A stretch of 5,787 nucleotides of DNA. Source: a virus. Lineage: Duplodnaviria; Heunggongvirae; Uroviricota; Caudoviricetes. Shown here piece by piece: positions 1,788 to 2,747 of the stretch. The translations under genes and the position numbers were made by a program. Position 1 is the first letter of the stretch. Every line of letters starts with the position of its first letter. Under the pieces are notes generated by a model. It ran no database searches. It was not told where the DNA came from and saw only the letters and a program-made list of their open reading frames with translations. Where the stretch lies: the IMG/VR virus record IMGVR_UViG_2623620501_000014, positions 1-5,787 of that record. The stretch is one strand, 5' to 3'.

Positions 1788-2237
1788 TCAGCCAACAAAT
1801 TTTGCAATTAAATACGTAGCCGCCGCTGTAAAAAGCGAAGTAAAGACGGCTATACACACGGGTATAATGATGCCACTCAACCGCCACTTCGTATTATCAT
1901 CAACTTTGTCAAACCGCCGATTCATCTCATCCATAATCTTGTCAAAGCGTTTATCCATCGCTTCGGTAATCTCACCCTTCAGGCTGTTAATGTCTGATTT
2001 GATCTGATCTTTCAGGTGAGCTGTATCAGATTTAAGCTCCCCTTTCAGATTCGCAATATCGCATTTAAGATCACCTTTCAGATGTGCTGTGTCTGCTTTG
2101 AGCTCACCTTTCACCTCACCAACATCGGCTTTGGTTGAAAGGTTTGTAGCGCGTTCAGCAAGCGTCGCAAGGTCGTTTCTTGTTAGCGATAAATCACCTT
2201 CGAGTCGCTCAATTCGCCTTTCAAGTTTATCTGACAT
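1788..2237 (-). CDS. Hypothetical tail-anchored coiled-coil membrane protein with five 11-residue repeats (149 aa from the ATG; 186 aa if it starts at in-frame GTG 2348)
   Basis: ATG at 2237-2235 preceded by GGAGGTGG (Shine-Dalgarno-like); TAA at 1790-1788. N-terminal charged helical region (MSDKLERRIERLEGDL...), five hendecad repeats of consensus xDxAxLKGELK, then a C-terminal ~29-residue hydrophobic segment (LSGIIIPVCIAVFTSLFTAAATYLIAKFVG). No family recognised. Confidence 0.7.
   Translation of the reverse strand: MSDKLERRIERLEGDLSLTRNDLATLAERATNLSTKADVGEVKGELKADTAHLKGDLKCDIANLKGELKSDTAHLKDQIKSDINSLKGEITEAMDKRFDKIMDEMNRRFDKVDDNTKWRLSGIIIPVCIAVFTSLFTAAATYLIAKFVG
1966..2130. repeat. Five imperfect tandem 33-bp repeats inside the coiled-coil CDS
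   Basis: Units at about 1966-1998, 1999-2031, 2032-2064, 2065-2097 and 2098-2130, sharing the core TTAAGnTCnCCTTTCAG. Each encodes one 11-residue repeat on the minus strand (SDINSLKGEIT / SDTAHLKDQIK / CDIANLKGELK / ADTAHLKGDLK / ADVGEVKGELK). Confidence 0.8.
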
Positions 2238-2348
2238 TCCACCTCCACTATTACCGCCTCCTCCACTGAAAGATGGGCCATCATCAAAAGAGTTGCTAAT
2301 GCCATCACGAATGGGGGTTACGCCATGCCCGCTTTTAGCACACGCCAC

Positions 2349-2747
2349 TCAGATTCCCTCCCAATCTATATATCCTTTATCTCTTGCCCAACGAACAACT
2401 GTGTGAGCTGTATATGTGGATGTGAAGCCGCAATAAGAACATGACACTTCATACCGGAAATTGTAGATGCTAATGGGGCCGTTCTCCTTACGTATGGGAG
2501 TGACATATTCCCAATCATTTGAATCATCATAATCATCAAGTTCAGGATCAGTGCCGTGAACAACCGTATGTGGAACAAATAAATCTGGGCGTCCACACGA
2601 GAGACAAGAGGTTTTAGCACCTCTATCTGTGAGAAATTGAATAAATAATTTGGGCGTAATTTTCTGCAAGGCCTGCACATGCTCACGTTCCTTATCATTA
2701 AGAGGCCTGCCAAGATATAGAAAATCATCAAATTTAAGAGGCTTCAT
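2349..2747 (-). CDS. Hypothetical Cys4 zinc-ribbon-like protein (132 aa)
   Basis: ATG at 2747-2745 with GGAG 9 nt upstream; TGA at 2351-2349. Two CxxC pairs (CLSCG and CSYCG) about 55 residues apart and an acidic patch (DPELDDYDDSNDWEY). Start overlaps the 3' end of the integrase gene by 14 nt. The ORF-track version begins 5 codons earlier at a TTG. No family recognised. Confidence 0.65.
   Translation of the reverse strand: MKPLKFDDFLYLGRPLNDKEREHVQALQKITPKLFIQFLTDRGAKTSCLSCGRPDLFVPHTVVHGTDPELDDYDDSNDWEYVTPIRKENGPISIYNFRYEVSCSYCGFTSTYTAHTVVRWARDKGYIDWEGI

Follow-up and report, generated by a model that had tools for sequence, protein, structure and literature searches.

We analysed a stretch of 5,787 nucleotides of viral DNA (IMG/VR record IMGVR_UViG_2623620501_000014, positions 1 to 5,787; in the following called the window), and here we describe two adjacent genes, termed gene B and gene A, which lie between the integrase gene and the attachment site (att) of a P2-like E. 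coli prophage. On its minus strand the window first carries btuE (1-552) and btuC (615-1595), and it then enters the left end of the prophage. The order on the minus strand is a C-type helix-turn-helix (HTH) repressor, the integrase, gene B, gene A, a 109-bp AT-rich spacer and the 25-bp att core (Table 1). An original prediction, made from the letters alone, had placed two open reading frames (ORFs) at 1788-2747 between int and att, and both are present at these coordinates on the minus strand and conserved. The prophage of strain 300709 (NZ_CP025903) is the same one, being 100% identical over window positions 1852-2800. At the far end of this identical prophage the att core is repeated exactly beside ihfA; the prophage thus includes both genes, A and B, which fall between int and att. 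In phage P2 the attP core is found about 80 bp from the int stop codon, and this interval carries the Int, IHF and Cox sites and, as the prediction had stated, not a single gene.

The genes are tightly packed. The start of gene B overlaps the int stop codon (2734-2736) by 14 nt, a crude consensus scan found no promoter-like site between int and gene B, and the hairpin within the att core is the sole terminator-like site on the gene strand. P2 has the layout Pc-C-int, and C is presumed to be the first gene of a lysogenic operon C-int-B-A. That the two genes lie on the int strand and would be expressed in lysogens, as had been proposed, is supported by this packing and further by other phages, in which the same pair is located directly downstream of the immunity repressor. 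The placement of the pair next to the repressor or on the int strand fits expression in lysogens.

Table 1. Features of the window (aa, amino acids; AF2, AlphaFold2 model; PGAP, NCBI Prokaryotic Genome Annotation Pipeline; TM, transmembrane)
Feature	Position	Strand	Basis
att core, 25 bp, AAAGAAAAAAGGCCGCAGAGCGGCC	1654..1678	.	exact direct repeat at the other prophage end
ihfA-type terminator hairpin inside the att core	1664-1678	-	scan for terminator-like sites
AT-rich spacer (32% GC), att core to gene A stop	1679..1787	.	
Gene A, long form, 186 aa from GTG 2348; predicted tail-anchored DUF1640/CCDC90-like coiled-coil membrane protein	1788..2348	-	
Gene A, short form, 149 aa from ATG 2237	1788..2237	-	ORF of the original prediction; PGAP call
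Predicted C-terminal TM anchor of A	1803..1880	-	Kyte-Doolittle 19-residue mean 1.5-2.2; AF2 helix 151-185
Five hendecad repeats of the A stalk	1968..2132	-	sequence; Tandem Repeats Finder
LSTKAD beta-layer neck motif of A, long-form aa 70-75	2124..2141	-	family consensus; AF2 helix break
N-terminal tail of A, 37 aa, predicted disordered, ending GGGGNSGGG	2238..2348	-	AF2; co-variation with B subtype
Gene B, 132 aa from ATG, soluble acidic protein, predicted Cys4 zinc ribbon	2349..2747	-	ORF; AF2; PHROG 4293
CxxC knuckles of gene B	2595-2606 and 2430-2441	-	sequence
P2-type tyrosine integrase, 330 aa	2734..3726	-	Pfam Int_N and Phage_integrase; PGAP coordinates
C-type HTH immunity repressor	3776..4087	-	Pfam HTH_3; annotation
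cox-like gene	4183-4461		
37-codon ORF in the early operon, MSIFISWLVLIISVACAIGIMRIIHSVKKTERFFTGE	5354-5467	+	single hydrophobic helix encoded

Genes B and A travel together. In 18 annotated loci gene B is directly followed by an A-type gene, the product of which begins with a variable tail and continues through a Gly/Asp-rich stretch and a conserved Met to a coiled coil, with a TM segment at the C-terminus. These loci stem from other E. coli alleles, Klebsiella, Salmonella phage SPN3UB, Klebsiella phage ST101-KPC2phi6.1, Serratia, Providencia, Pectobacterium, Citrobacter, Yersinia and two further contigs. Among the B loci of IMG/VR, 54 of 66 have an intact A-type ORF, the first start codon of which lies between 82 nt before and 4 nt after the B stop codon. 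The surroundings of the pair vary. The order C-int-B-A-att is found in the window and in a P2-like element of K. pneumoniae, and the order C-B-A-int in Citrobacter, in locus L026 and, with extra cargo, in Pectobacterium. In locus L025 the pair follows directly, and in the same orientation, a cI-type repressor with HTH and peptidase S24 domains. In SPN3UB and the Serratia prophage it is part of the arc/ant immI region, in Providencia it lies beside ogr and in Yersinia between the tail genes and a block of tailspike, O-antigen acyltransferase and int. These slots belong to lysogeny operons or are sites of morons, and the phages concerned are of several unrelated types. Every locus examined is a prophage or belongs to a viral contig. 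A plasmid-borne origin was considered and dropped, as only one weak match to B was found in 72,556 plasmids. Judged by these sequences, B-A is one conserved two-gene cassette and an accessory cargo of temperate phages of Enterobacterales.

The same integrase (95-100% identical) is encoded in 299 of 5426 complete E. coli genomes, and we counted the contents of the slot behind it by searching for cargo downstream of the integrase. An unrelated single gene for a 131-aa protein occupies the slot in 158 genomes, an allele with a 120-aa B and a 145-aa A in 86, and an A of the DUF1640 type in 39. Fifteen of the latter carry the 132-aa B as in the window, and the others that we examined carry a 166-aa B. 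There are at least four alternative slot contents for one integrase lineage, namely three divergent B-A alleles and the 131-aa gene. The suggestion that the two genes are accessory cargo in a variable slot is supported: this type of A is present in 39 and this type of B in 15 of the 299 integrase-bearing genomes, the pair is not universal, and the slot of P2 is empty. The commonest alternative cargo, the 131-aa protein (L018 3087-3482 in O104:H4; L021 3087-3482 in O55:H7 CB9615), has strains of the O104:H4 outbreak lineage and of O55:H7 among its carriers; it has no match in Pfam or PADLOC. PGAP annotates the 300709 prophage with P2-family capsid, scaffold, portal, terminase, gpA-type replication endonuclease and ogr genes. 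At its ogr-att end we observed a gene for a hok/gef family toxin together with insertions of the IS3 and IS110 families (L022 11288-13495). This phage thus has accessory cargo at both ends.

The int-att interval of P2-like phages is reported as a minor hotspot for defence genes and to hold 3% of the recognised defence systems of P2 (NAR 2026, PMC13586616). In P4 hotspots six of eight randomly chosen unknown loci proved to be defensive (PMC13586616), and the interval between repressor and int of K139-like P2 relatives is reported as a defence hotspot too (Rousset et al. 2022, PMC9122126). By its sequence context the B-A cassette is a hotspot-type cargo, with variable content at a fixed position between conserved phage genes and att. 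It lies between int and att or, in relatives, between repressor and int, and these intervals are both reported as minor or alternative hotspots. It differs from the described cargo in that it is not among the systems recognised by PADLOC. No mention of the cassette was found in PMC9122126 or, its supplements set aside, in PMC13586616.

A comparison of the alleles with the 132-aa and the 166-aa B is instructive. The A cores are 87% identical (130/149), whereas the A tails, with 11 of 37 positions shared, are unrelated and the B proteins are 27% identical. The DNA similarity of the window to the O103-type allele ends at about position 2258, which is in the Gly linker of A. With a conserved core and a divergent B and A tail, B and the tail are thus swapped jointly, while the effector body to which they belong stays common to the alleles. 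The joint exchange is the best available evidence that B might act on the tail.

This tail was not part of the ORF as first described. Gene A had been read as a 149-aa protein with an N-terminal coiled coil, five hendecads and a C-terminal TM anchor; the hendecads and the predicted anchor were found again behind an N-terminal helix, and it is the start codon which is doubtful, since 149 aa probably corresponds to a short form only. The A frame is open from ATG 2237 upstream to GTG 2348, which abuts the TGA of gene B. In all 18 B-A loci the A frame is open from a position at or before the B stop codon, with a start codon which usually overlaps this stop. With this frame open throughout the loci examined, A likely has 186 aa and there is no intergenic gap between B and A. 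The upstream extension tolerates an in-frame deletion of 18 nt, it has a pN/pS of 0.36-0.83 and thus below 1, and its last residues form, in all lineages, a Gly/Asp-rich stretch in front of a Met. Because of the open frame and the tolerated in-frame deletion we dropped the 149-aa ORF as the sole product of gene A. Most likely, as these reading frames suggest, A is made as a 186-aa protein from GTG 2348.

The internal start is nevertheless conserved. ATG 2237 is preceded by GGAGG at 2242-2246 with a dG of -9.9 kcal/mol to the anti-Shine-Dalgarno sequence, and an internal ATG with a strong Shine-Dalgarno (SD) sequence was present in 12 of 13 scored loci (dG -9.3 to -12.9 kcal/mol). In locus L025 the encoded peptide is KGGEPPM and not a Gly run, yet the DNA still reads AAGGAGGTGA, an SD sequence. 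The start of the long form usually has a weaker SD sequence than the internal one. We read these signals as two conserved starts of gene A and probably two isoforms, one of them the tail-less form of 149 aa. We also note that at 2346-2351 the window reads TGAGTG, so that the B stop codon is in frame with the long A ORF and readthrough would fuse B to A. This in-frame arrangement is seen in seven of the loci read, all of them E. coli alleles with the 132-aa B or the Klebsiella prophage. A fusion by stop-codon readthrough was dropped as an explanation, as B and A overlap out of frame in strain 2013C-3033 and in the other alleles.

Gene B codes for exactly four Cys residues, in CLSC (aa 48-51) and CSYC (aa 103-106). 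Among 61 homologues C48, C51, C103 and C106 are all invariant, and the only other invariant residues are P59, Y99 and W120. With the four Cys, a Pro, a Tyr and a Trp as the few invariant positions, B has no catalytic signature. The AF2 model is confident (pLDDT 84.5, pTM 0.76) and shows three N-terminal helices, a four-stranded ribbon which bears both CxxC knuckles and a C-terminal helix; the second CxxC is placed on a hairpin formed by strands E97-103 and E109-113. Thus the description of B as a Cys4 zinc-ribbon-like protein of 132 aa holds: according to the model B is a putative Cys4 zinc ribbon with two conserved CxxC knuckles on beta-hairpins. The protein is acidic with a pI of 5.5, which is also the median of the B family, and for this acidity a role as nucleic-acid binder was dropped. 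A role as adaptor, sensor or antitoxin fits B best; its description as sensor-like in the original prediction is not supported, as nothing shows B to be a sensor. The pN/pS of gene B is about 0.3 and that of the A core 0.2-0.45, which indicates purifying selection on both genes.

The original prediction had recognised neither protein as a known family, and this was not borne out. B is a member of PHROG 4293 (E = 3e-29), a group without an assigned function, and A is, in the naming of PGAP, a DUF1640/CCDC90 protein which moreover carries the neck motif of this family (see below). B had no match in Pfam, NCBIfam or PADLOC, the best E-value of the B-family profile against PDB sequences was 0.18, and a Foldseek search of the B model against PDB and BFVD returned nothing at E<=1e-3, just vague TFIIS-type ribbons. 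For A there was a sub-threshold match to PF07798, and the low-scoring coiled-coil matches in PADLOC (ZorA, LmuB) were read as noise. The number of B homologues depends strongly on the search. A word-indexed search returned six close clusters and an alignment-seeded one 63, and an exhaustive profile search of 1.84 billion representatives gave 206 matches, nearly all of them standalone proteins of 49-180 aa, the lone exception being a 711-aa protein with multiple zinc fingers. All homologues with a stated organism are from Enterobacterales. One B lineage with a 159-aa protein, comprising seven near-identical IMG/VR contigs and the relative L094, is followed by small hydrophobic ORFs (L087 2932-3411, downstream to 5256).

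Gene B is also easily overlooked. The 132-aa gene B has 15 carriers among the E. coli RefSeq genomes, and in 12 of them PGAP calls no coding sequence at its place (H68-H79). The ORF is intact in both such genomes that we read (L005 3439-3916 and L017 2951-3428; 90% DNA identity). As gene B is mostly unannotated in its RefSeq carriers, defence-mining pipelines and annotation-based surveys meet a lone 'DUF1640' gene.

Gene A, in the 149-aa reading, encodes an N-terminal helix, the motif LSTKAD, five hendecads, two looser 11-residue units and a C-terminal hydrophobic helix (short-form aa 120-145), after which about four residues follow. The hendecads are KADVGEVKGEL, KADTAHLKGDL, KCDIANLKGEL, KSDTAHLKDQI and KSDINSLKGEI with the consensus K-[ACS]-D-x-[AGN]-x-[LV]-K-[GD]-[EDQ]-[LI]; at the DNA level Tandem Repeats Finder reports a period of 33 bp with 3.2 copies and a score of 112. 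AF2 models residues 1-37 of the long form as disordered and the remainder as helices 38-69, 73-146 and 151-185, with the break of the helix exactly at LSTKAD (long-form aa 70-72). Relatives have FATKSD or FATKAD. Proteins with DUF1640 are integral membrane proteins of prokaryotes and mitochondria, and their C-terminal stalk opens with the beta-layer motif [aliphatic]-A-T-K-[polar]-[DE] (Hartmann et al., eLife 2016, PMC4786415). With LSTKAD at the helix break, A follows the head-neck-stalk-anchor plan of DUF1640. The names that PGAP gives to A are DUF1640 domain-containing protein and CCDC90 family protein. The match to Pfam PF07798 reaches 28.2 bits (E = 2e-6), which is below the gathering cut-off of 33.5, and several homologues of A (82-93% identity) have precomputed PF07798 matches and the NCBI name DUF1640/CCDC90. 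There is also a weak profile match to PDB 6h9l, an uncharacterised protein (E = 0.011; three chains of that sequence). In its predicted structure A is thus DUF1640-like, with a single C-terminal TM anchor after a long coiled coil.

The stalk of A is a length-variable element, because the short forms of the homologues have 112, 123, 134, 145 or 156 aa and thus differ in steps of 11 aa, that is by whole hendecads. More distant partners of B have other 11-mers, no repeats or, in locus L048, FATKADLQx nonads. The A-type protein of L048 (IMGVR_UViG_2706794495_000001), with 212 aa and encoded downstream of a B match at 3001-3318, contains about six consecutive xATKADLQx units (…NTATKADLQNTATKADLQSFATKADLQNFATKADLQSFATKADLQTV…). 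This is the DUF1640 beta-layer motif in repetition, spaced as nonads, and it looks like a natural case of the alpha/beta coiled coil that PMC4786415 describes. The 3′ end of the gene varies as well. At least three alleles of the TM anchor (…IIIPVCIAVFTSLFTAAATYLIAKFVG, …IIVPVCTTIFTAAVAVFVAKFVG and …VVIPVAVGILSALITFVVARFGA) are found on near-identical stalks when window positions 1803-1880 are compared with L016, L002 and P0027/P0034, which points to recombination inside gene A and a mosaic 3′ end. Some copies are damaged. In strain 300709 an IS3-family element sits in the last codons of A (window 1788-1803; L001 18733-19946), in strain M1/5 ISEc52 replaces the 5′ end of A together with B, int and C (L004 3001-4515), and two IMG/VR loci (L072 and L073) have frameshifted A genes. 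These disrupted or frameshifted genes could reflect decay or the counter-selection of a costly gene.

We compared the cassette with known systems. A resembles the DUF1640/CCDC90 proteins (PF07798; human MCUR1 and CCDC90B, yeast Fmp32) in the helical head, the neck motif, the coiled-coil stalk and the C-terminal anchor. It differs from them in its score under the Pfam cut-off, the variable number of hendecads, the disordered tail with a Gly-rich hinge and the obligate zinc-ribbon partner gene; for the DUF1640 family we found no description of variable hendecads, of such a tail or of a zinc-ribbon partner. We know of no function for the bacterial or phage members of the family. The abortive-infection pair RexA/RexB of lambda, which is expressed in lysogens, is likewise a two-gene cassette for one soluble and one membrane protein. 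Lambda carries rexAB directly after cI, the position that B-A takes after the repressor in L025, and in the P2-like phages B-A takes its place in the C-int operon. The likeness is positional and architectural only, as there is no similarity in sequence or fold: neither A nor B showed homology to RexA or RexB in Pfam, NCBIfam or PHROG, RexB spans the membrane several times where A has a single C-terminal helix, and the order and sizes of the rexAB genes differ from those of B-A. Dual-start phage membrane proteins are known in the holin-antiholin pair S105/S107 of lambda and in SieB/Esc of P22. The A ORF with its two conserved in-frame starts for a long and a shorter form is similar, although the predicted forms of A differ by 37 residues and not by 2, and the Pfam search gave no homology of A to holins or SieB.

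The loci demonstrate the accessory status of the cassette, its tight coupling, the conservation of the pair, its lysogeny-side positions and the co-variation of B with the A tail, and this context strongly suggests a conflict system which is expressed in lysogens. We tentatively favour, with somewhat less than even confidence, the view that B-A is a phage exclusion or abortive-infection cassette. We suggest that it could operate as follows. The promoter Pc would drive B and A along with C and int, and their translation would be coupled. A would be anchored in the inner membrane by its C-terminal helix with the remainder in the cytoplasm and, by analogy with DUF1640 proteins, might form a trimeric coiled coil of head, beta-layer neck and hendecad stalk. 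B would bind the disordered 37-aa tail of A and either hold A inactive or couple it to a signal. Upon infection A would act at the membrane, by depolarisation and abortive infection or by a block of genome entry. The tail-less isoform of 149 aa would escape the hold of B and could tune the system. That the cassette is in this specific form a so far undescribed prophage immunity, in which an inert zinc-ribbon clamp gates the tail of a trimeric DUF1640-type effector and the tail-less isoform does the tuning, is rather doubtful, though it deserves consideration.

Several points weigh against a role in exclusion or abortive infection. B, including its 166-aa and SPN3UB relatives, matches no known or candidate defence model in PADLOC-DB v2, and we did not find literature on either protein. 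With its single C-terminal TM segment and its body in the cytoplasm, A does not readily suggest a pore or a blocker of injection. There are exceptions to the pairing on both sides: the 159-aa B lineage (8 of 66 IMG/VR loci) is without an A partner and may have a different effector or be a degenerate locus, and DUF1640 proteins are also encoded where there is no B, Liberibacter phage SC2 being an example. The physical interaction of B and A is read only from their co-variation and the expression from Pc from the gene packing and the crude consensus scan. Finally, the resemblance to an SD sequence could be a by-product of the Gly codons in the Gly-rich stretch.

Three other functions have to be weighed, and the remaining probability falls to functions not listed here. 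The first is an addiction or toxin–antitoxin (TA) module without a role in defence, with A as membrane toxin and B as protein antitoxin, which would stabilise the prophage or the cargo slot by killing cells from which it is lost. A small soluble gene followed by a membrane gene, with a stop/start overlap and tight stoichiometric coupling, is typical of type II TA operons, and overlap or abutment of the B stop and the A start is what the examined loci have. The co-variation of B and the A tail as a unit and the IS elements in gene A of strains 300709 and M1/5 would suit a TA module as well, and elements of this kind do ride on this phage, as is evident from the hok/gef gene at the opposite prophage end. 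However, no homology to TA families was found in Pfam, NCBIfam or PADLOC, and in several genomes an intact A stands beside an intact B which PGAP leaves unannotated, that is, an annotation gap and not a loss. We regard pure addiction as unlikely; besides, TA and abortive infection are not mutually exclusive, so that this explanation overlaps with the exclusion cassette proposed above.

Secondly, the cassette might serve lysogenic conversion, with A as a membrane-tethered cytoplasmic scaffold which alters the envelope or stress physiology of the host and recruits a host partner through B. The DUF1640 architecture of A would suit a scaffold, since the eukaryotic, mitochondrial members MCUR1/CCDC90B are described as such, and the acidic B without catalytic residues is adaptor-like. 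In Yersinia the cassette even adjoins an O-antigen acyltransferase gene, a classic conversion gene. Yet there is no linkage to host genes. The cassette is confined to temperate phages apart from the one weak plasmid match, and the fast turnover of alleles and the variation in repeat number are more typical of conflict systems. Conversion seems improbable, slightly more so than addiction.

Thirdly, the genes could function in the phage's own cycle, as an XhlA-type lysis accessory or as a membrane-tethered regulator of induction or lysogeny. XhlA (PF10779; the PBSX/Xenorhabdus haemolysin type) is like A a small coiled coil with a C-terminal TM helix. The profile matches of A are weak (PF10779, E = 0.011; a PHROG annotated 'hemolysin', E = 0.0037), and the A partner of L025 has a weak XhlA match too. 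With 16.4 bits the XhlA score of A is far under the cut-off of 34.7, and we know of no zinc-ribbon partner of XhlA. The cassette lies outside lysis cassettes. In most contexts it adjoins the repressor or the integrase, as a regulator might, and its neighbours in the loci examined are int, repressor, ant/arc, ogr or tail genes but never holin, endolysin, spanin or other lysis genes. Since it is absent from most P2-like phages, P2 included, it is not needed for the phage cycle, and we consider such a role very improbable. A recombination-directionality factor was rejected outright, because the cassette keeps no constant place with respect to int and the window has a cox-like gene of its own.

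Some further features of the window deserve mention. The spacer between att and gene A contains TAACCACA at 1680 and at 1746 with an imperfect inverted copy at 1768-1778. By analogy with the annotated arm sites of P2 attP these repeats, which are so short that they may be due to chance, are possibly candidate sites for Int arm binding, IHF or Cox, displaced from int by about 1 kb of cargo. The spacer also holds the palindrome TTAGATAATTATCAAA at 1704-1719. The start codon of the 37-codon ORF in the early operon overlaps the stop codon of the preceding gene (ATGA), and its 114-nt equivalent in relatives is annotated by PGAP as hypothetical. A search of the window against Rfam gave no match.

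In summary, the B-A cassette is real, conserved and under-annotated. It is a good candidate for experiments, though an exclusion cassette at this place would not be a surprise, because many unknown cargoes in these hotspots prove to be defensive. It is carried by temperate phages of the P2-like and lambdoid types. The hosts of these phages are E. coli, with Shiga toxin-producing strains of the serogroups O157, O26, O103 and O145 among them, and also Salmonella, Klebsiella, Citrobacter, Serratia, Yersinia, Pectobacterium and Providencia. If B-A indeed mediates phage exclusion, it would add a system with components unrelated to the catalogued defence proteins, and its A protein would be the first defence effector with the length of a hendecad or nonad stalk as a variable parameter. 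To our knowledge the molecular role of the DUF1640/MCUR1 family is still disputed. The finding, if true, would for the first time give a function to one of the prokaryotic or viral members of the MCUR1/CCDC90 family, and the cassette would provide a tractable bacterial model of this family for structure-function studies, with a partner protein, natural tail-swap alleles and variants in stalk length.

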